Below are positions 3 through 13,225 of a stretch of 64,000 nt of DNA, in pieces. The notes under the pieces are model-generated. The model ran no database searches, had not been told where the DNA came from, and was given only the letters and a program-made list of their open reading frames with translations. Origin of the DNA: Bacteroidia bacterium (lineage in GTDB: Bacteria > Bacteroidota > Bacteroidia > UBA8524); contig JAMIFM010000029.1 in assembly GCA_035906255.1 (NCBI GenBank), positions 50,944-114,943 on the forward strand, given 5' to 3'. Both the position numbers and the translations under genes were made by a program. Each line of letters starts with the position of its first letter. Within the stretch, counting starts at the first letter, position 1.

Positions 3-614
3 TCAAAAGGCAAGGCGGGCGAAGACATCCAACGCCAATACGGACAGGGCAATATCGAGTTTATTGATATGAGCTTTAAAGTACGCTACAAGCTGGGCGC
101 AATGGCCGCTTCTTCAAACGCTACGGTAAACATTATCGACACTACCATTGCCAAAACGGAAGGACGTACCGATTTGCATCAAGGCATTTTGCCCGGCAAG
201 ATGGCTTTTGCTATCGGAGCGATACGTTTGGCCTATGGCGAAACCGCAGGATTACCCGAAACAGCGCTGTACCGTAGTCGCAAGTACGGGTTTAACATCA
301 CCCCCGCAGCGGCAGAACAGGCGCAGTTTGTTCCTGCCTTGCTTCAAAACAGCCGATTTGAATTTTGGCAAGGGTCGCGCAGGCTGATAAACGAGCAGGT
401 AGAGACCTTTTTTGCCGACACGGACAGCATCGAAGAAGGCGGCCACCTGTTAGACTGTTTGACCCTCGATAACCCTAAATTATTGATGCCCGACGAAGTT
501 TTATCGGGGATAATCGTTCCCCCTATAACGGGAGCGTCACTGAGTGCGGATGCCTGTATCGAGCTGAAAGTTATCGGTACAGCCGCCCAATTACGCAAAA
601 CATCTGCTGTTTAA
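3..614 (+). CDS. Hypothetical structural-type protein, probably 5'-truncated by window
   Basis: The reading frame is open from nt 3 to the first ATG at 69. A strong intrinsic terminator follows. Product not recognisable. Confidence 0.6.
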   Translation, partial: SKGKAGEDIQRQYGQGNIEFIDMSFKVRYKLGAMAASSNATVNIIDTTIAKTEGRTDLHQGILPGKMAFAIGAIRLAYGETAGLPETALYRSRKYGFNITPAAAEQAQFVPALLQNSRFEFWQGSRRLINEQVETFFADTDSIEEGGHLLDCLTLDNPKLLMPDEVLSGIIVPPITGASLSADACIELKVIGTAAQLRKTSAV

Positions 615-3935: not shown

Positions 3936-4877
3936 GTGGATTCTAAAGGGTATAAAGACATCGGCATCGGTGCAGGAGTATTCCTGCTCGCCTTCGGGGT
4001 GTACCGCTTTTTCCGTAAAAAGGATTTGGCAGAAACCCCCGGCACGGACGAGTATCAGGAAGCTGCCTTAAAGCAGATTACCGTGGACACTAAAAAACTG
4101 GCTCGCGATAGTTTTTTCTATAAAAGCACCGCCGACCAGTTGGAAAATGAACTCTCGCGCCGTGTTGCCATCTTTGACATCTTCACCTACGATACCAAAA
4201 AGGTATTTTCAGCAGTGGACGGCCTAAACACCGAGGAACTCAAGCAACTGTTAAAATCCTTCGGGGTGCGCAGCTTAAAGAGTTTCAACCTTGTAAAGCT
4301 GAAAGACGGGGGGACGCTTTTGGAGTGGTTCGACAACATCCTTTCCAAAACCGACCTTGACCGTATGCGGCAGGTATTTGCAGCCACAGGGCTGTGGGCG
4401 AAAGCCGACAGCACCAAAGCCAAAGAAAATTACCTCAACTACCTAACTGCGTGGATGGGTAACAACCTTAGCAAAGTGAAATACCCCAATGCCCGTTTAA
4501 CAGTGGGCAGACCCGTGTACTCCACCTATACAGGCAAGGAAAACATGAGCTACTTAGACAACGGGTGGTGGGATATTAACAGTTGGCGGGCTAAAAAAGG
4601 CCAAACGGGGGACTTTTACGTGCGCCCTTCGGATGCCGCCCGACCCATTGGGACAATATCGGATATAATGCGCCTTACCGAAGCTGATAAATTGGGGCAA
4701 GTGCCTTTAATCAAGGTAAAAATTACCCACCCCCAACTGTTCACCAACGCCCCAAACCCTTTGTTAAACCGTGAAGTGTGGCTTATCCCTTCGCGGCTCA
4801 CCGACACCCCGTATAAGCCGCCCTTGGAAGGGATAGGCTTTTCACAACACCCTCAAAAACTTACAGAACTACTTTAA
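3936..4877 (+). CDS. N-terminally membrane-anchored protein (313 aa)
   Basis: GTG start 1 nt after the previous stop. TM helix IGIGAGVFLLAFGVYRFF. Remainder not recognisable. Confidence 0.55.
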   Translation: MDSKGYKDIGIGAGVFLLAFGVYRFFRKKDLAETPGTDEYQEAALKQITVDTKKLARDSFFYKSTADQLENELSRRVAIFDIFTYDTKKVFSAVDGLNTEELKQLLKSFGVRSLKSFNLVKLKDGGTLLEWFDNILSKTDLDRMRQVFAATGLWAKADSTKAKENYLNYLTAWMGNNLSKVKYPNARLTVGRPVYSTYTGKENMSYLDNGWWDINSWRAKKGQTGDFYVRPSDAARPIGTISDIMRLTEADKLGQVPLIKVKITHPQLFTNAPNPLLNREVWLIPSRLTDTPYKPPLEGIGFSQHPQKLTELL

Positions 4878-5120: not shown

Positions 5121-5671
5121 GGATAAAATACATTCTTATCTGCCTTTTACTGGCCGCTGTAATCGTATTTGTGTATTCCCTTAAATGCGATAGGTCGGAT
5201 AAGCCACCGACCGCAGCTTACCGACCGCCGACCGATACATGGGTTACTATCCCGCGCAGTGTCCATACTACCGACACGGTTACAAAAACCCTGTACGTTC
5301 CGATTGTGCAAACACCGCCCCACGATACGGTATTTATCGGAATAGATACCGCCCAAATCCTCCGTGAATATTTTACCAATAGCCTTTACAAAGAGGTGTA
5401 CTCGGACAGTGCTATGGAGATAGAAATTACCGACAGCATTGCCCACAACCGCCTTGTGTCCCAAAGTGTGCGCTACAAAACCAAAATCCCCCCTGTACCC
5501 CCTGCCGTTCAACTTTGGGCGGGGGTAATTGCCGATACCCGCAAAACAACAGGGGTGGCCTTGTACCTGAAAGACAAAAAACAACGGTTGTACGGGGTGG
5601 GGTTCTCTACCGATAAATCCGTTTGTTTCAGTGTGGCCGTGCCCCTTTTTAAAACAGGAGGCACACGCTGA
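5105..5671 (+). CDS. N-terminally anchored protein (188 aa)
   Basis: TM helix ILICLLLAAVIVFVY. 16-nt overlap with the upstream ORF across a G7 run (5107-5113). Confidence 0.5.
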   Translation: MGGQVRIKYILICLLLAAVIVFVYSLKCDRSDKPPTAAYRPPTDTWVTIPRSVHTTDTVTKTLYVPIVQTPPHDTVFIGIDTAQILREYFTNSLYKEVYSDSAMEIEITDSIAHNRLVSQSVRYKTKIPPVPPAVQLWAGVIADTRKTTGVALYLKDKKQRLYGVGFSTDKSVCFSVAVPLFKTGGTR

Positions 5672-6300
5672 TGGACGCTGTTTTTGAATTGTGGAACGAG
5701 TACATACTCAAAGAGTGGGAAGGGGGTATTGCCGACCGACCATTGCGCGATGACCCCGGTGGTTTAACAAACAAGGGGGTAACAATTGCCGTTTGGAAGG
5801 AATGGGCTCCCAAGTTATTTGGAATAACAGGCAACGAAACCACCCTGCGCCAACTCACCGAAGCCCAAGCCAAACGGGTGGCTTATGAAATCTACTGGAA
5901 GTTTTACGGCATTGACAAAGTAACCAATCCTGCCATTAAGCTGCTGCTTGCTGACTCAGTATGGGGCGGTGGCGGTTACAGCAGTTTGGGGTACAAAACA
6001 GGCAGTTACGCCCAACGTGCCGCACAAATCAACAAAGACAATCAAGCCAACTCCAACCTGTTTAATGTGCTTGTAAACCGCAGGCTGGCCTATTTGCGCA
6101 GCTTAAAGAACTATGAAGTAAACAAGAACGGTTGGGAAAACCGCGTGTGGAAGGGCGACCCTCAACGCCTTTCATTAACACAGGTGGTAGCCAAATACAA
6201 ACTTAACAACGCCGTAGTAGGTATTAGCTTGGTCAGTGCTATTGCATTGGCATTGGTAGCAAGGGCGGTGTACAAAAAGATTAAAAAGCCAAAGAAATGA
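5671..6300 (+). CDS. GH108-type muramidase / peptidoglycan hydrolase with C-terminal TM anchor
   Basis: N-terminus EWEGGIADRPLRDDPGGLTNKGVT fits the GH108 EGG...D.GG.T..G.T pattern. C-terminal helix VVGISLVSAIALALVARAV followed by a KK-rich tail. Confidence 0.7.
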   Translation: MDAVFELWNEYILKEWEGGIADRPLRDDPGGLTNKGVTIAVWKEWAPKLFGITGNETTLRQLTEAQAKRVAYEIYWKFYGIDKVTNPAIKLLLADSVWGGGGYSSLGYKTGSYAQRAAQINKDNQANSNLFNVLVNRRLAYLRSLKNYEVNKNGWENRVWKGDPQRLSLTQVVAKYKLNNAVVGISLVSAIALALVARAVYKKIKKPKK

Positions 6301-7073
6301 ACCTGCCAAAATTTAAGAACCAGCACGAAGTAAACCAGTATATCCAAACCTTTATCGCCCAAAAAGACGGTAAAGGGGAAGGATATACCACAGAAGACAA
6401 GGAACTGATAGCCCGTTATTCGGGTAGCGGCGGTCTTGCCTCCAAAGGGGCGAAAGCAGACGCAGGGCTACTGTATGAATTTTATACCCCTGATTGGCTT
6501 TGCGGATTAATGTGGAAACTTGCCCTGCATCACGGATATGACGGGGGAACGGTATTAGAACCTTCGTGTGCTACGGGTAATCTTTTTAAAGATGCCCCCG
6601 ATGAAAGTAAATGTGTGGGGTTCGAGACCAATCCCACCACTGCACGTATCGCCCAAATCCTTTATCCCAAAGCAACCATACATACTGGCTATTTTGAAAC
6701 GGCCTTTTTAGACCCCCCGCGTTTTGTCTCTAAACTCAAAGGCAAAACAACGTGGTTGAAAGAATACCCTTTTTCTTTGGTTATCGGCAACCCACCGTAT
6801 GGCCTTTACAAGAACCGTTACAGCAGCTACTTTGATAAAAGACTGTTTAAACAGGTAGAGATATTTTTCATTTACCAAGCCCTACAACTGCTCACTTCGG
6901 GCGGGCTATTGGTGTACTTGTTAAGCCAAAACTTTTTACGTACCGGCGATAAGTACAACAATGCAAAAGAGGCCATCGGAAAATATGCCGACCTGATAGA
7001 TGCTTACCGACTGCCCAAAGTATTTACACATTCGGATGTGCCTACCGATATACTGGTTTTGAAAAGGAAATAG
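6297..7073 (+). CDS. N6-adenine DNA methyltransferase (gamma-type motif order)
   Basis: EFYTP, then AdoMet motif LEPSCATGNLF, then catalytic VIGNPPYG. Confidence 0.8.
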   Translation: MNLPKFKNQHEVNQYIQTFIAQKDGKGEGYTTEDKELIARYSGSGGLASKGAKADAGLLYEFYTPDWLCGLMWKLALHHGYDGGTVLEPSCATGNLFKDAPDESKCVGFETNPTTARIAQILYPKATIHTGYFETAFLDPPRFVSKLKGKTTWLKEYPFSLVIGNPPYGLYKNRYSSYFDKRLFKQVEIFFIYQALQLLTSGGLLVYLLSQNFLRTGDKYNNAKEAIGKYADLIDAYRLPKVFTHSDVPTDILVLKRK

Positions 7074-7352: not shown

Positions 7353-7565
7353 ATGACCGACAACCAAATACAACAACTAAGAACCGAAGTGCGCAAGGAG
7401 CTGCAAAACCTTGCCCCTTCCATATATCCATATTTTTCAAAGCTGGCAAAGGATGGCGACGGTTTAAACCAAGCAGAAGCAACGGTAATAGGATACATGG
7501 CAAAAAATGCCGTATCGGTGATGAGTGCCATTGCCCAATTGGAGGGGGAATATGAAGCGGGATAA
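7353..7565 (+). CDS. Hypothetical protein (70 aa)
   Basis: ORF whose end overlaps the helicase start. No motif. Confidence 0.45.
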   Translation: MTDNQIQQLRTEVRKELQNLAPSIYPYFSKLAKDGDGLNQAEATVIGYMAKNAVSVMSAIAQLEGEYEAG

Positions 7566-10500
7566 ACACCACGTATCACAGCATCCCAAGTTTGTAAGGG
7601 GCAGGCTCAAAGCATTTGCACACTTCATTGAGACGCTTCCAGATACCGAGGACAAGCACAGCCCCCGCGAACTTTTAAAAATGGGGTTTGTACACCCCGA
7701 TATTGAATACAACGTATCGGCCAAAACCGCACAGTTCGGGGTCAGCCAATCCGAAGCCCCCTTGACCTTTACAGAACTTACCAATTATTCGACGTGGTTT
7801 TATATACACCCCGAAAAAGTAGCAGGCCATGAAACGATAGTTACCTCGCGTGATTTTCCGATAAAAGTAAACGGCGACCGACAAACCATTACCAATACAA
7901 TTACACAAAACCTGCATATTTCATCCAATACCCCAAAGCTCCAACCCCAACATCCCGATTCTGATAAAATGAAACGACTAAGGTTAGCCACTGCCAAAGC
8001 AAAAGCACTTGCCCTGAAACTTAAACTGGATACCAACGCAATAAACGGGGTAGAAAGCGGTTCCCACATCGGCCAAAAATCGGCTCAAAATCGGCAAAAT
8101 ATCGGTGGTTTTCCGCCCTTAGACCCTGCCGTATATGAACTGCTAAAAACCCTGCCTTATGAAAAGGTATCGGGGTTATCGGGATTAGGTAAGCTAACCC
8201 CCGCCAAAGGCCAAAAACAACCCATGCTTTCCTTCAAAGAAGTGGATGAATTGTACAACGCAGGCATTACTACCGAAGAAAAGCAGGCGTGGGTGTATTA
8301 TCAAAAATCCAAAGGCAATAAAATGTTGGGGTGGGATAAGTACGATACCGGAAAACCCTCACCGCAAAAGATTACGGAATTGATGGAAAAAGGGGCGTTG
8401 TTTTACTTAGGCGGGGAATTATTGCCCTATCCTGTGTACTCCTACGGTAATATCTACGACCGACTGATAGACCTTGAAAAAGACAAAGCAGACATTGTAG
8501 ATACCTTTGGCCAAAAGGCATTTGAAGCCCATAAAAAGGCATTGGATACTGCCAAGCCCAAAGAAATAAGCGTACGTGCCCCCGATATTAAAGACCGTCC
8601 TAAAATCTCGGTGGTTTCAAAGTTTGCCTCAAATGAATTATCGTTTAAGATATACGGGTTAAACGAAGCATTGGTAGATGTTTCCTTACCCTCTGATGCT
8701 GCCAGTGAAGGAATATCCCTGCAACGGGCATTCTCGGCATGGATGAAGAAATTGGACGATACCCAATTTCAAAACGTAACTGCCTACGAAATCCAACGGT
8801 ACTACTTAGAAGCCCGCAATTACCCTCGTGGGATGGAAGAAGCCGAAAAGGAACTTATCGAGCAATACGCACCATTAGAGGGAGAACAACTCTTTTCGCG
8901 TTTCCTCTTTGAAGCCTTAACCGACGAAGACAAAGTAAAATTAGACTTTACGTGGAACCGCCAATACAACGGTCAAAGTTCGGTACAATACCAGCGCATC
9001 CCCGTAGGTTTTGAATGCTCCGCCATATTTAAAACCGCCCCCCTTTCCATTACCCCCATACAACGCGAAGGTATTGCCTTTATGACTGCCGTAGGCAGTG
9101 GCTTAATTGCTTACGATGTAGGGGTAGGTAAAACCATGACCGCCATTATCAATATTGCCAATGCCCTATACAGCGGTAAATGCAAACGTCCCCTAATTGT
9201 AGTTCCTAACCCCACCTATAACAAATGGTTAAAAGAACTTTTCGGGTACACCGATAAAGTTACAGGCCAAGAAATTTCAGGGGTGCTGACAGGAACGGGT
9301 TACCAGCTAAACGAATGGTACAATTTGGGAACGGACGTGCAAGGCAAAATTAACCTTAAAAACCCCGTTGCCGAAAAATCCGTTACCGTCCTTACCTACG
9401 AAGGGTTTATGCGTTTGGGGTTCTCTCAAAAACTAATGGAAGGGCTTTTTGAAGACCTTTCCCATATTATCCACCAAACTGACCCCGATAAAGGGGAAAC
9501 AAAACGGGACATTGCCAAACTCAATCAAAAGCTGGAGGAACTAATCGGCGGCTCTAACAAGGAAACGGTAGTCAATGTGGATGATTTGGGGTTTGACTTT
9601 ATCTGTGTGGACGAAGCCCACAACTACAAAAACGTTTTCAGTTATGTACCCCCCGATGAAGAAGGCAACAAACGCTTCAAATTCGACGGCGGCCAAAGCG
9701 CAAGGGCGCAAAAGATGTTCTTTATCACCAATTACATACAGCGCACCTATGGAGCGAATGTAATGATGCTGACGGCTACCCCTTTTACCAACAACCCGAT
9801 GGAAATCTATTCCATGCTCTCAATGGTGGGGTATGAAAACATGAAAAAGTACGGTGTTCGCAACCTGTACGATTTTATGGAAACCTTTATCAATCAGTCC
9901 TACGAGTATGTAATGACCTATCAGGGGGATATTGCCAAAAAGCACGTGGTAAAATCGTTTAACAACCGTTTGGTGTTGCAACGCTTGATATACAACCACA
10001 TTAACTACAAAACAGGCGAAGAGGCAGGGGTCAAACGACCTTGTAAAATCAACCTGCCCCGCACCACTAAAACGGACGAGAAAACAGGACTGCCCATAAA
10101 GCTACCCCCCAACGAGCAGGTAGTGACTTACCTGCAAATGACCGAAGAGCAGCAAACCAACCAAGCCTTTATTAACGACCATCCCAACAAAGTATCAAGG
10201 CTGGAAAAGCTAAAGGCCATTATGCGCTGTTTGGGCTGGAGCTTGGACAATGCGCTGTCCCCCTTCATCTTTACCAAAGAAACCCCTGCGGATTATAAAG
10301 AGTTTGTAGAGAAAAGCCCCAAAATCATGTACACCGTTGCGTGTATCCGTTCGGTAAAGCAATGGCACGAAAAGCGGAACGAACCCGTTTCAGGACAGGT
10401 TATCTATATGAACCGAGGCAAAGAGTACTTTAAGTACATTGTCGAATACCTTGAAAAAGAACTTGGCTTTAAGCCCTCTGTAAAATACAGGGGGGCAACG

Positions 10501-11751
10501 GTGAGCGAAGTGGAGGTAATCACTTCGGAAATTTCCCAATCCCGCCGTGAAATCATCAAAGATGCCTTTTTGGACGGGGTAGTAAAAGTAATTATCGGCA
10601 CGGCTACTATCCGCGAAGGGATTGATTTGCAGCGCAAGGGGACGGTGCTGTACAACTGCTACCCCGATTGGAACCCCACCGATGCTAAACAGTTGGAAGG
10701 ACGTATATGGCGGCAAGGAAATGAATACGGTTATGTAAGGGTGGTAATGCCCTTAGTTCAGGACTCTATGGACGTCTTTGTATTCCAAAAGCTGGAAGAG
10801 AAAACCCAACGGATTAACGATATATGGTACAGAAGCGACCGAGGCAATGTATTGGATTTGGATAGTTTGGATACCGAAGAGGTAAAATTTGCCCTTTATA
10901 CCAATATTGCGGAACTGGCCAAAATTGCCTTAGAGAAAGAACAGCGAGAACTGGACAACCAGCTCAAAATACTAAAATCCCAAATTGATACGGTCAATAA
11001 CGTTGCAGTTTACAAAGCAGGGCTATTAAAATACCGCGAGGAATGTAACAAATACCCGAATAACTGGCGGATTAGTTTAATGAACTTTTTAGCCAACTCT
11101 GCCGAAAACCAAGCTCCCCTGTGGAGCAAAACGGTAAAGGAAATGGAAGAAATTAGGGAACGTGCTTTTGAGCTTGCCAAAGAAATAGACGCTTACATGG
11201 TGCAGCCCCAACAAACCGACCGCGAACTATTGAACCTGTACCGTAAAGTATCCCCGACTGTTTTTGCCACCCGTTATATCCTAACTATACCGCATTCTAC
11301 TTTTGAAAGCCTTAAAATCTATATGGGTGCTATTGCAAAAGCGGAGAAAACCGTATTTGAGGCAAAAGGGTATTCAATGGATACAGATTTTGAGGTGGTG
11401 AAAGAACAACTGGTGCAAGAGCAGAACCGCATTGAAGAACTTTACGCCCAACTGAAAAGCCCCGAAAATTATTCCCGCATCACCGAGGATATTATCCGCA
11501 AAAAGCAAAAACTAAAAGTAAGCGGTCGTTTACCGCAAACAGCGGCAATGGACTTTGCAGGATTAAACCACCTGTTAGCCTATCAGTTTAATCCTACCGA
11601 CAATGGAAGTTGCATTATCCCGTTGCCCGGTGCTGCACCCAAACCCAAACCCCAAAACACCGAAGCTGATGACAGGGAACGTCGCAAACGCCTTGCGCTT
11701 GCAAAAGCAAAAGCCCTTGAACTTAAAATCAAATTATTAAACGTAGCTTAA
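7552..11751 (+). CDS. SNF2-family helicase-like protein, about 1400 aa, with long unassigned N- and C-terminal regions
   Basis: Walker A DVGVGKTMTAI, motif II CVDEAHNYKN, motif III LTATPFTNNPMEIYS, C-lobe GTATIREGIDLQ and WNPTDAKQLEGRIWRQGN. ATG at 7552 is preferred to the GTG at 7525. Confidence 0.85.
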   Translation: MKRDKHHVSQHPKFVRGRLKAFAHFIETLPDTEDKHSPRELLKMGFVHPDIEYNVSAKTAQFGVSQSEAPLTFTELTNYSTWFYIHPEKVAGHETIVTSRDFPIKVNGDRQTITNTITQNLHISSNTPKLQPQHPDSDKMKRLRLATAKAKALALKLKLDTNAINGVESGSHIGQKSAQNRQNIGGFPPLDPAVYELLKTLPYEKVSGLSGLGKLTPAKGQKQPMLSFKEVDELYNAGITTEEKQAWVYYQKSKGNKMLGWDKYDTGKPSPQKITELMEKGALFYLGGELLPYPVYSYGNIYDRLIDLEKDKADIVDTFGQKAFEAHKKALDTAKPKEISVRAPDIKDRPKISVVSKFASNELSFKIYGLNEALVDVSLPSDAASEGISLQRAFSAWMKKLDDTQFQNVTAYEIQRYYLEARNYPRGMEEAEKELIEQYAPLEGEQLFSRFLFEALTDEDKVKLDFTWNRQYNGQSSVQYQRIPVGFECSAIFKTAPLSITPIQREGIAFMTAVGSGLIAYDVGVGKTMTAIINIANALYSGKCKRPLIVVPNPTYNKWLKELFGYTDKVTGQEISGVLTGTGYQLNEWYNLGTDVQGKINLKNPVAEKSVTVLTYEGFMRLGFSQKLMEGLFEDLSHIIHQTDPDKGETKRDIAKLNQKLEELIGGSNKETVVNVDDLGFDFICVDEAHNYKNVFSYVPPDEEGNKRFKFDGGQSARAQKMFFITNYIQRTYGANVMMLTATPFTNNPMEIYSMLSMVGYENMKKYGVRNLYDFMETFINQSYEYVMTYQGDIAKKHVVKSFNNRLVLQRLIYNHINYKTGEEAGVKRPCKINLPRTTKTDEKTGLPIKLPPNEQVVTYLQMTEEQQTNQAFINDHPNKVSRLEKLKAIMRCLGWSLDNALSPFIFTKETPADYKEFVEKSPKIMYTVACIRSVKQWHEKRNEPVSGQVIYMNRGKEYFKYIVEYLEKELGFKPSVKYRGATVSEVEVITSEISQSRREIIKDAFLDGVVKVIIGTATIREGIDLQRKGTVLYNCYPDWNPTDAKQLEGRIWRQGNEYGYVRVVMPLVQDSMDVFVFQKLEEKTQRINDIWYRSDRGNVLDLDSLDTEEVKFALYTNIAELAKIALEKEQRELDNQLKILKSQIDTVNNVAVYKAGLLKYREECNKYPNNWRISLMNFLANSAENQAPLWSKTVKEMEEIRERAFELAKEIDAYMVQPQQTDRELLNLYRKVSPTVFATRYILTIPHSTFESLKIYMGAIAKAEKTVFEAKGYSMDTDFEVVKEQLVQEQNRIEELYAQLKSPENYSRITEDIIRKKQKLKVSGRLPQTAAMDFAGLNHLLAYQFNPTDNGSCIIPLPGAAPKPKPQNTEADDRERRKRLALAKAKALELKIKLLNVA

Positions 11752-11752
11752 T

Positions 11753-12469
11753 ATGATAGCCATTACCCCCAAAAACCTAACTACCGCCCCTATTAATTGG
11801 GCGTTATTACCCAAAGACCTGCAATCAGAAAAAGAGAACCTTGAACTCTACGAAGAATTTTACGACGAAGACACGTCTATCAAACAGAACGTGGATAAAC
11901 TGATAGATGTAATCAAGAAAACCCACAAAGAGGCAGGAAACAAGCCCGCCCCAAAAAAAGCAAGGGGAGTGAAAAAGCTACCTAAAGTTAAAGCCCCTGC
12001 TAAAACCAAACTGCCACGAAAAAAAAAGAGGACGGTAAAAAGGACTGCCGCCCCAAAGAAGAAAAAGGCAGCGGCCAAAAAGACGAAACGCAAAGCCATT
12101 GTAAAAACTAAAATCAAAGTGGTTAAAGAAAAAGCCCTTGTGAACGTTAAGAAATACAGCCTTGAATTACAACTGATAAAGTCTTTTATCGCCATGAAAG
12201 GCAAAGACCGCAAAGTAACCGCCATCCGTAACTTTTTAAAAAGGATAGAATCGGCTAAAAGCAATACCAACGTATCTTCTCAAAAATCCCTGCTTACCGT
12301 TATTGCCCAACGCATGAAAACAGCATTGGCAGGATTATCGGATAATGTGGAATTTGTGCGCAATATCAACATTGCTGAAGATTTGTTAAAGAAATGCAAG
12401 GAGGCTGTGAAAAATGCCAAGCCAAGATTACAAGTGCAATACTTATCGGGTTTGAAGCCAAAAAAGTAG
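11753..12469 (+). CDS. Lysine-rich, histone-H1-like probable DNA-binding protein (238 aa)
   Basis: Central roughly 70-aa tract KPAPKKARGVKKLPKVKAPAKTKLPRKKKRTVKRTAAPKKKKAAAKKTKRK. Starts 1 nt after the helicase stop. Confidence 0.55.
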   Translation: MIAITPKNLTTAPINWALLPKDLQSEKENLELYEEFYDEDTSIKQNVDKLIDVIKKTHKEAGNKPAPKKARGVKKLPKVKAPAKTKLPRKKKRTVKRTAAPKKKKAAAKKTKRKAIVKTKIKVVKEKALVNVKKYSLELQLIKSFIAMKGKDRKVTAIRNFLKRIESAKSNTNVSSQKSLLTVIAQRMKTALAGLSDNVEFVRNINIAEDLLKKCKEAVKNAKPRLQVQYLSGLKPKK

Positions 12470-13149
12470 GTAGGGCGGACAGTCCGCGGACACGTCCGAC
12501 GGGTAGTCCGTCCGTAAGAAAATTAGCTATATCGGGGTTTACTCCCATAAATGAAATACAGCCTGCAAAGGGCACTTTTAGCTTAAAAGGCGACCTGGGC
12601 AGGTTCTTAGGGAACTTGGAACGCTATAAGCTGGCCATCACCCTTGAGGGCGACCAAGGTTCAGGTAAAACCCAATTTGCGTTTCAGTTGGCCGACGGGT
12701 TTGCGGATTTGGGAATGAAAATCGGGTTTTACTCCTTAGAAATCGGAGCAAACTCCAATATCGTAATGACCAATCGCGATAAATACCTAAAACCTGCCAA
12801 CCGTGAACGTTTGTTTGTGAGTGAGGAAAACTCACTAAAAGACGTTCGGGAAAAGGCAAAGGTTTTTGATGTGATTATTATCGACAGTTGGACAAAGCTG
12901 GACGTGGATAGTTCAGAGTTTGATAAGCTGAGAAAGGATTTTCCGAACTGCATTTTTATTGTGATTTTTCAACGTACCTCACAAGGGAAAATACGCGGGG
13001 GAACTAAACCGTTGTACGATGCCGGAATAAATATCATGATTCACAAAGTGGACAATACTTTTACGAACAACTACGCCGATTGTACTAAAAACAGGTATGG
13101 GCAAACGGGTTTGCAGTATAATGTCAGCCAAAAACGGCTGGTAGGATAG
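12394..13149 (+). CDS. RecA/DnaB-like P-loop ATPase
   Basis: Walker A GDQGSGKT, FYSLEI (DnaB-like H1a), Walker B VIIIDSW. The only in-frame ATG lies 76 nt inside the upstream gene, so the true N-terminus is uncertain (see frameshift finding). Confidence 0.7.
   Translation: MQGGCEKCQAKITSAILIGFEAKKVGRADSPRTRPTGSPSVRKLAISGFTPINEIQPAKGTFSLKGDLGRFLGNLERYKLAITLEGDQGSGKTQFAFQLADGFADLGMKIGFYSLEIGANSNIVMTNRDKYLKPANRERLFVSEENSLKDVREKAKVFDVIIIDSWTKLDVDSSEFDKLRKDFPNCIFIVIFQRTSQGKIRGGTKPLYDAGINIMIHKVDNTFTNNYADCTKNRYGQTGLQYNVSQKRLVG
12460..12466 (+). other. Candidate -1 ribosomal frameshift slippery heptamer A_AAA_AAG
   Basis: In the zero frame of 11753-12469 the sequence reads cc[A AAA AAG] TAG. The -1 frame continues as KKVGRAD, which is the ATPase ORF. 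A GC-rich CGGAC/GTCCG cluster starts about 7-10 nt downstream. Confidence 0.45.
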
Positions 13150-13197
13150 AATTAAGTATATTTGCTTTCCTTGTTTAAGGAAAATTGCAATCGACAG

Positions 13198-13225
13198 GCC
13201 GCAGGGATGCGGCTTTTGCTTTTTT
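13198..13225. terminator. Bidirectional terminator hairpin
   Basis: GCCGCA-GGGA-TGCGGC followed by a T-run. Sits between convergent genes. Confidence 0.65.

Follow-up and report, generated by a model that had tools for sequence, protein, structure and literature searches.

In a 64,000-nt stretch of DNA from a Bacteroidia bacterium (contig JAMIFM010000029.1 of assembly GCA_035906255.1; the whole stretch is called the window below), a lysine-rich open reading frame (ORF), ORF-A, is followed by the ORF of a RecA-superfamily ATPase in a different frame. From sequence comparison, we consider it probable, at roughly 85%, that the two ORFs are one gene that is decoded in two ways by programmed −1 ribosomal frameshifting. 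This reading is supported because the signal at the junction is conserved among relatives, because its stem shows covariation, because the ATPase segment is under purifying selection and because homologues carry both halves as a single ORF. The ribosomal nature of the slippage, as well as its efficiency and the function of both products, is what we infer from these observations.

In the proposed mechanism, most ribosomes would read …CCA AAA AAG and terminate at the TAG at 12467, yielding the 238-aa lysine-rich protein. The stem-loop located 6 nt downstream would hold a fraction of the ribosomes over A_AAA_AAG, where the P-site and A-site tRNAs would slip back by one base in tandem, and the slipped ribosomes would then read the −1 frame from 12466 to yield a 465-aa protein composed of the N-module, a linker and the RecA-superfamily ATPase. 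An adjacent stop codon may add to −1 slippage.

The junction and its downstream stem-loop

An earlier reading of the window from its letters alone (the sequence-only reading) had placed a dnaX-type slippery site directly before the stop codon of ORF-A and had proposed that a −1 slip leads into the frame of the ATPase. The letters and coordinates of the ORF-A end and of the heptamer were verified (Table 1), and a reading that begins at 12466 yields VGRADSP, in frame with the ATPase ORF. As called, this ORF spans 12394–13149 in frame −1 relative to ORF-A, and the open stretch of the −1 frame, 12379–13149, runs across the heptamer. The trans-frame product has the junction …GLKPKK/VGRADSP… and comprises 465 aa, in agreement with the size of about 465 aa predicted earlier, and it aligns end to end with contiguous homologues. 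The scarcity of start codons for the ATPase was likewise confirmed: the only ATG in its frame is at 12394, with a 76-nt overlap with ORF-A, and the sole start candidate between the ORF-A stop and Walker A is the TTG at 12616, which precedes Walker A by 11 codons. The Logan assemblies SRR18360465 and SRR18360466 show 100% identity to the window across the junction, and the junction of the related locus L069 is identical to that of the window.

Table 1. Features of the junction, the encoded proteins and the upstream genes (positions in the window; residues refer to the AlphaFold model of the trans-frame protein)
Feature	Position	Strand	Remarks
GH108 lysozyme-like gene	5671–6300		upstream
N6-adenine DNA methyltransferase	6297–7073	+	upstream of helicase
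SNF2-family helicase	7525–11751	+	1408 aa; ends 1 nt before ORF-A
ORF-A	11753–12469	+	238 aa, lysine-rich; ends CCA AAA AAG TAG
Slippery heptamer A_AAA_AAG	12460–12466	+	in X_XXY_YYZ phase of ORF-A
−1 frame coding segment	12466–13149	+	227 codons and stop; disordered linker and RecA-superfamily ATPase
0-frame stop TAG	12467–12469	+	abuts 3′ side of heptamer
Branched GC-rich stem-loop, putative frameshift stimulator	12473–12513	+	41 nt; 6-nt spacer after heptamer
Walker A GDQGSGKT	12649–12672	+	invariant in homologue alignment
Walker B-like strand VIIIDSW	12871–12891	+	D378, S379 and W380 invariant in alignment
Terminator-like hairpin and T-run	13196–13215	+	3′ of ATPase ORF
Helical region	residues 1–61		
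Disordered K-rich stretch	residues 62–129		
Second helical domain	residues 130–229		
Disordered linker	residues 226–259		shift site at residue 238
Alpha/beta domain	residues about 265–465		

The sequence-only reading had also described a structure of six mutually complementary CGGAC/GTCCG pentamers starting 7–10 nt after the heptamer. The pentamers, which lie within 12476–12510, and the stem-loop were borne out, whereas the distance was not, as the stem-loop begins at 12473 and the spacer is therefore 6 nt. These six form the only such cluster among the 42 pentamers of this type in the 64-kb window. The minimum free energy of the stem-loop is −26.1 kcal/mol (z = −3.2 versus dinucleotide shuffles), corresponding to 0.60 kcal/mol/nt, and its GC content is 0.73 versus 0.41 in the flanks. 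The two strands of the window together contain 120 A6R heptamers; when these were ranked by their downstream fold, the site at 12460 came first with −26.1 kcal/mol, followed by a site with −17.4 kcal/mol (mean −6.9, sd 4.2), and none of 1000 random 50-nt windows reached −24 kcal/mol. The fold at 12460 is thus an extreme outlier, and the signal exceeds what would be expected by chance.

Other roles were considered for this structure. A terminator was ruled out, as there is no T-run 3′ of the hairpin, and so was an inserted repeat or miniature inverted-repeat transposable element, as the GC-rich palindrome is unique in the window and the hairpins of relatives differ from it at the same spacing. 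Rfam contains no family that matches at the frameshift site. A terminator-like hairpin with a T-run is located 3′ of the ATPase ORF (Table 1) and closes the operon, which places ORF-A and the ATPase segment on one transcript.

Two more slippery tracts lie in phase in the K-rich region of ORF-A, at 11953–11959 (CC[A_AAA_AAA]GCA) and at 12019–12027 (CG[A_AAA_AAA]_AAG, an A9 run). The folds downstream of these tracts do not rank with the window's eight strongest, and the tracts could give background slippage or, at the A9 run, transcriptional slippage.

The split and its signal among homologues

When the hypothetical 465-aa trans-frame protein was used as the query for a protein search, homologues of about 390–480 aa were found to carry both halves as a single ORF, with the fusion aligning end to end. 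The junction of the window falls in the variable linker of these proteins, flanked by a conserved …KPK.K.EYL[AS]G motif on one side and by the beginning of the ATPase domain, …LF.NI..ID…, on the other. Single ORFs are also the rule among distant homologues, with most of them (in Aquimarina, Marivirga, Fulvivirga and others) being of this kind. DNA-level scans that are independent of gene calls were carried out on GTDB genomes (66 loci) and metagenomes (13 loci), and the two halves then served as separate tblastn queries. The ATPase is out of frame with the N-domain in L005, L007/L022, L069, L070, L072, L075 and L077, and the frame of the ATPase is −1 in all of these as well as in every other split relative (L082–L088, L089 and L093). 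A search with ORF-A only gave 16 further N-only ORF clusters of 227–249 aa with 41–70% identity, all 16 of which end in …YLSG-x(2-6)-(K)K-stop; the DNA of five of them (L082/83, L084/85, L086, L087 and L088) shows the same split as the window. The P0022 locus was judged by its gene geometry, in which a stop at 714 is followed at 726 by the next gene, in frame −1. The sequence-only reading had named as evidence against itself homologues that encode the ATPase behind a normal separate start and lack the heptamer; the search gave the opposite, namely fused ORFs or a split at exactly this linker with the heptamer.

A hidden Markov model search with the N-only profile returned 226 representative clusters at E ≤ 1e-3, and the end of the N-domain was matched in 70 among the best 150 of these 226, which were examined. 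Within these 70 clusters, 37 have a stop no more than 17 residues after YL[AS]G, with K as the last residue in 25 and KK in the last five residues in 26 of them, and 14 continue for at least 150 aa.

In 12 distinct hairpin-type lineages, the window included, the split falls at an A_AAA_AAG, A_AAA_AAA or G_GGA_AAG that is in phase (Table 2). A stop codon directly follows the heptamer in 11 of the 12, and a hairpin of 33–57 nt starts 4–6 nt downstream in all of them. The stems belong to at least four unrelated types (GGGCGG…/…CCGCCC, GGGACGGCUGC…/…GCAGGCCGUCC, GCCGAUAU…/…AUAUCGGC and GGCAG-UCGCA…/…UGCGA-CUGCC), with stabilities of 0.27–0.67 kcal/mol/nt, and in the clade of the window the GC content of the hairpins is 0.56–0.79 versus 0.37–0.45 in the flanks. 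RNAalifold analysis of nine signals from this clade (clade I below) revealed a common 7-bp outer stem that is kept in all nine, with compensatory double changes at three of its seven pairs, for example G-C, G-U and A-U at one pair. Among the three closest sequences, one inner pair is G-C in L070 and U-A in L082, and its partner is bulged in the window. From the heptamer on, the −1 frame is open through the full ATPase for 225–254 codons in every lineage, with L086 an exception only because its contig ends. Stimulators of the IS3 type (IS, insertion sequence) have been described as 17–140 nt long and as starting 4–10 nt after the motif (PMC4066793), and the hairpins of the lineages and the stem-loop of the window fall within these ranges. 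The conservation of heptamer, spacer and structure that the sequence-only reading had proposed to look for is therefore found in 12 lineages, with spacers of 4–6 nt and compensatory pairs, and its description of the site as a canonical −1 frameshifting signal agrees with the phase of the heptamer, the open −1 frame, the downstream structure and the conservation with covariation.

Table 2. Signals of the hairpin-type lineages (A_AAA_AAG is in phase throughout, with the variants A_AAA_AAA in L005 and G_GGA_AAG in L075)
Lineage	Heptamer and context	Spacer	Stem
Window, identical to L069	CCA_AAA_AAG_TAG	6 nt	GGGCGGAC…/…GUCCGUCC
L070, L082, L084	CCA_AAA_AAG_TAG	5–6 nt	GGGCGG…/…CCGCCC
L086	AGA_AAA_AAG_TAA	5 nt	GGGGCGG…/…CCGCCCC
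L087, L072	GGA_AAA_AAG_TAA / TAG	6 nt	GGGCGG…/…CCGCCC, other inner helix
L088	GGA_AAA_AAG_TAG	4 nt	ACAGGCGGCUGC…/…GCAGACCGUCUGU
L075	TCG_GGA_AAG_TAA	5 nt	GGGACGGCUGC…/…GCAGGCCGUCC
L077	GGA_AAA_AAG_TAG	5 nt	GCCGAUAUUCU…/…AGAAUAUUCGGC
L005	GGA_AAA_AAA_TAG	4 nt	UGCCGAUAUA…/…UAUAUCGGCA
L089 (distant)	CCA_AAA_AAG	5 nt	GGCAG-UCGCA…/…UGCGA-CUGCC; 0-frame stop in loop

The ratio of nonsynonymous to synonymous substitution rates (dN/dS) of the ATPase is 0.128 between the window and L070 and 0.120 between the window and L072, whereas dS is saturated between the other split lineages, at a protein identity of 55–73%. A dN/dS of 0.12–0.13 together with saturated dS indicates that the split is ancient and that the ATPase has been maintained by purifying selection. 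Ordinary decay in the family differs from this: L028 has an in-frame TGA (4256–4258) in place of a Trp codon, and L061, L064, L066 and L068 are fragments with a truncated ATPase. None of these Aquimarina-type pseudogenes and fragments (L028, L061, L064, L066 and L068) has a slippery site.

The searches gave three further observations. A second copy of the module (L082/L083) is present in SRR18360465 and SRR18360466, the runs that also hold the sequence of the window; this copy shares 69% identity in the N-ORF and comes with an A_AAA_AAG_TAG and a hairpin of its own, so that the sample contains two related elements or a single genome carries both. The N-domain ending in YL[AS]G is also fused to C-terminal regions of 60–300 aa with widely varied lengths (for example in P0144, P0148, P0158, P0169 and P0249), and the N-module may thus have partner domains of different kinds. 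A 132-aa fragment in an NCBI record of Oscillatoria amoena NRMC-F 0135 (P0131) is 93% identical to the end of ORF-A and ends in …YLSGLKPKK; it probably derives from a Bacteroidota contaminant contig in a cyanobacterial assembly.

Alternative explanations and slippage designs

The ATPase could be a separate gene that is translated from its own start (ATG 12394 or TTG 12616) or by termination–reinitiation at the ORF-A stop, with the heptamer and hairpin being incidental or serving coupling. There is an in-frame ATG at 12394, and automated callers annotate a distinct downstream gene in every relative; however, the start codons in the ATPase frame are not conserved across lineages. The ATG of the window, at −24 codons, is replaced by GTG in L070, the first start in L072 is a GTG within the conserved FTPV motif, and L077 offers just a TTG, at +28 codons, which leaves L072 and L077 without any start upstream of the conserved domain, and the downstream starts picked by gene callers give products ranging from 154 to 219 aa. 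In addition, every lineage maintains an open −1 frame beyond the heptamer, homologues are fused, and a separate gene would leave the conserved in-phase heptamer and the hairpin at 4–6-nt spacing unexplained. We therefore regard a separate gene as unlikely. As homologues are single ORFs and the break lies at an A-run, the split might also be a frameshift mutation, a pseudogene or a homopolymer sequencing error in a former single ORF. This explanation is extremely improbable, because the junction is identical in two further assemblies and in L069, because the same split occurs in lineages with saturated dS and with the ATPase intact at a dN/dS of 0.12, because every shift is to −1 and occurs at a slippery heptamer, and because the ordinary disrupted copies of the family described above look different.

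The sister clade of the window's lineage shows another arrangement at the same linker. In a neighbour-joining tree of the ATPase domain, the Lys-rich subfamily is divided into two clades: clade I, which includes the window, consists entirely of genes with heptamer, stop and hairpin, while clade II mostly has an A9 or A10 tract. Such a tract was found in all nine unsplit clade II genes examined (L003, L004, L071, L073, L074, L076, L090, L091 and L092), and both shifted frames of the unsplit genes stop within 3–13 codons. L007/L022 is a split (−1) member of clade II with an A9 tract in L007, and L005 and L077, which have the unrelated GCCGAUAU stem, are also placed inside clade II. The folds downstream of the A9/A10 tracts have z-scores of about 0 versus shuffles in the seven loci tested, and those of L090–L092 and L093 are weak. 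In the very divergent L093, the N-ORF ends in GAA_AAA_AAA_AAA_TAA (A11; 2253–2265) without a hairpin and is followed by a −1 ORF of 281 codons that encodes a homologous RecA-like ATPase. The hairpin goes with the short heptamer, whereas the A9–A11 relatives have no significant downstream structure.

These tracts bear on programmed transcriptional realignment, in which RNA polymerase would add one A on the A-run and the ribosome would not slip. Efficient transcriptional slippage needs about 8–9 A or more, and the run in the window is only A6. Moreover, a downstream RNA hairpin at a distance suited to the ribosome and a stop directly after the heptamer are typical of ribosomal frameshifting, and the hairpin is found in exactly the lineages with a short tract. 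Although the A9–A11 tracts without hairpins at the same site in L007, L093 and the nine unsplit clade II genes, as well as the parallel to the A9 tract of Thermus dnaX (PMC3711429), speak for realignment, we consider it quite improbable for the window.

Several points weigh against −1 ribosomal frameshifting at the junction. The ATG at 12394 in the ATPase frame makes some independent initiation possible, and the hairpins of L005 and L077 are modest (−11 to −14 kcal/mol when folded alone, z −1.5 to −2.4). Most of the 37 N-only clusters were judged from their protein C-termini alone. There are no tRNA genes within the window; a tRNA-Lys(CUU) in the host would be expected to lower slippage on AAG (PMC4066793).

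For the sister clade, the A9–A11 tract without a hairpin suggests, by analogy with Thermus dnaX, transcriptional slippage, and in the unsplit clade II genes the A9/A10 tract may represent programmed slippage that makes a short isoform. This dnaX-like pattern suggests that the trait under selection may be the production of a short as well as a long isoform. It is possible, although we propose it tentatively and with slightly more doubt than support, that the whole family is selected for two isoforms, N-only and N-ATPase fusion, via interchangeable recoding designs at one inter-domain linker. In the first design, heptamer, stop and hairpin would give the fusion by a ribosomal −1 shift; in the second, a split gene with an A9–A11 tract would give the fusion by transcriptional slippage; in the third, an unsplit gene with an A9/A10 tract would give the short form by slippage. 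If this is true, mobile elements of Bacteroidota would use the isoform ratio to adjust an antirestriction or establishment module of the DarB-like type.

Encoded proteins, genomic context and known systems

The ORF-A product consists of a helical domain, a disordered K-rich stretch and a second helical domain that ends in YLSGL, and the AlphaFold (AF2) model of the trans-frame protein, built on the homologue alignment, places the shift site in a disordered linker in front of an alpha/beta domain (Table 1). Foldseek comparison of the alpha/beta domain gave RadA/Sms (5lkm), RecA and DnaB/Twinkle at E of about 2e-9 with a probability of 1.0, which backs the RecA/DnaB-like ATPase assignment of the sequence-only reading. 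The ATPase did not reach membership of a curated family, its best Pfam match being AAA_24 with 19 bits versus a cut-off of 27. For either half, NCBIfam gave nothing above its cut-off, a sequence-profile search of the PDB gave nothing significant and PADLOC gave no match, and no DDE transposase domain was found in the domain search. The 238-aa lysine-rich protein probably binds nucleic acid.

Upstream of ORF-A are genes for an SNF2-family helicase, an N6-adenine DNA methyltransferase and a GH108 lysozyme-like protein (Table 1), and SNF2/helicase domains are located directly upstream in every related locus in which the upstream gene was inspected. Both the methylase and the helicase match phrog_10089 (‘DarB-like antirestriction’) and phrog_1685. 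The two are separate ORFs, yet they match long fused phage proteins (phrog_1685, phrog_11801 and phrog_10089), and the 450-nt gap between them contains only a 70-aa ORF (7353–7565), which overlaps the listed GTG start of the helicase. An integrase is located near the module in L092, and T9SS-type sorting domains found nearby in the window point to a host within the Bacteroidota. BLASTN of the locus against plasmid and phage collections gave no match, and a scan of viral contigs gave no relatives. The fused homologues from Aquimarina and Marivirga are named ‘antirestriction protein’ by NCBI, and this annotation label is the only support for a putative antirestriction activity of the protein. 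The gene presumably acts alongside the adjacent methylase/SNF2 (DarB-like) module of a mobile element.

These observations have consequences for annotation, as the split relatives inspected were all annotated by pipelines as a pair of unrelated hypothetical genes whose starts are arbitrary, whereas the true long product would be a 465-aa protein with a DNA-binding-like module and a RecA-fold ATPase. A fixed ratio of short to long product would be built into a gene behind the SNF2 helicase (and, in the window, also the methylase) of Bacteroidota mobile elements, and such a built-in ratio points to a stoichiometric or regulatory use, as in dnaX and the IS3 transposases. For recoding research, the family also offers stimulatory hairpins of diverse kinds, together with A-tract alternatives, as a natural series, and it will be useful for studying the evolutionary interconversion of ribosomal and transcriptional slippage. 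Bacteroidota translation makes little use of Shine–Dalgarno pairing, and the family is therefore useful for testing −1 frameshifting that is independent of it. The interest of the system rests on the strong comparative case, the consequences for annotation and the apparent swap of slippage designs within one family.

Focusing on known recoding systems, dnaX of Escherichia coli uses A_AAA_AAG and a hairpin, while dnaX of Thermus uses transcriptional slippage on an A9 tract (PMC3711429). The gene of the window resembles E. coli dnaX in its heptamer, which is identical, in the hairpin that follows at about 6 nt and in its two predicted products with a common N-terminus, and the family alternates between heptamer with hairpin and long A-tract, as dnaX does across phyla (PMC3711429). 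However, the polarity is reversed, as the shift would give the long product and normal decoding the short one, and the proteins are unrelated, with a RecA-fold ATPase here and an AAA+ clamp loader in dnaX. Unlike in dnaX, no upstream Shine–Dalgarno-like stimulator is obvious at the site, for which no formal test was made.

The OrfA–OrfAB arrangement of IS3 and IS1 is similar in combining A_AAA_AAG with a downstream hairpin or pseudoknot in a mobile-element setting, and in using a shift to join a catalytic domain to a small N-terminal protein that probably binds DNA. The 0.60 kcal/mol/nt of the window hairpin is at or above the IS3 mean of 0.45, and a comparable signal, A_AAA_AAG followed after 5 nt by a stem-loop, was predicted in IS elements from a symbiont belonging to the Bacteroidota (PMC3196728). 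Only the mechanism is alike: the window gene has no DDE domain and no IS ends, its downstream domain is an ATPase and its 0-frame stop abuts the heptamer, whereas the stop lies further downstream in IS3/IS1.

A further parallel is provided by the fused ‘antirestriction protein’ genes of Aquimarina, Marivirga and Fulvivirga, which have a homologous N-domain and RecA-like ATPase with 38–63% identity over the aligned part and adjoin DarB-like methylase/helicase genes, much as a methylase and an SNF2 helicase lie upstream of the window gene; they differ in being single ORFs without a slippery tract at the linker. A full-text literature search, whose coverage is incomplete and does not prove novelty, gave no report of frameshifting in this gene family, and the GeneTack survey and a 2016 recoding review do not mention it. 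In conclusion, the mechanism appears to be canonical, similar to those of dnaX and IS3, with a signal unannotated so far and in a gene family that, by this comparison, would itself be new for it.

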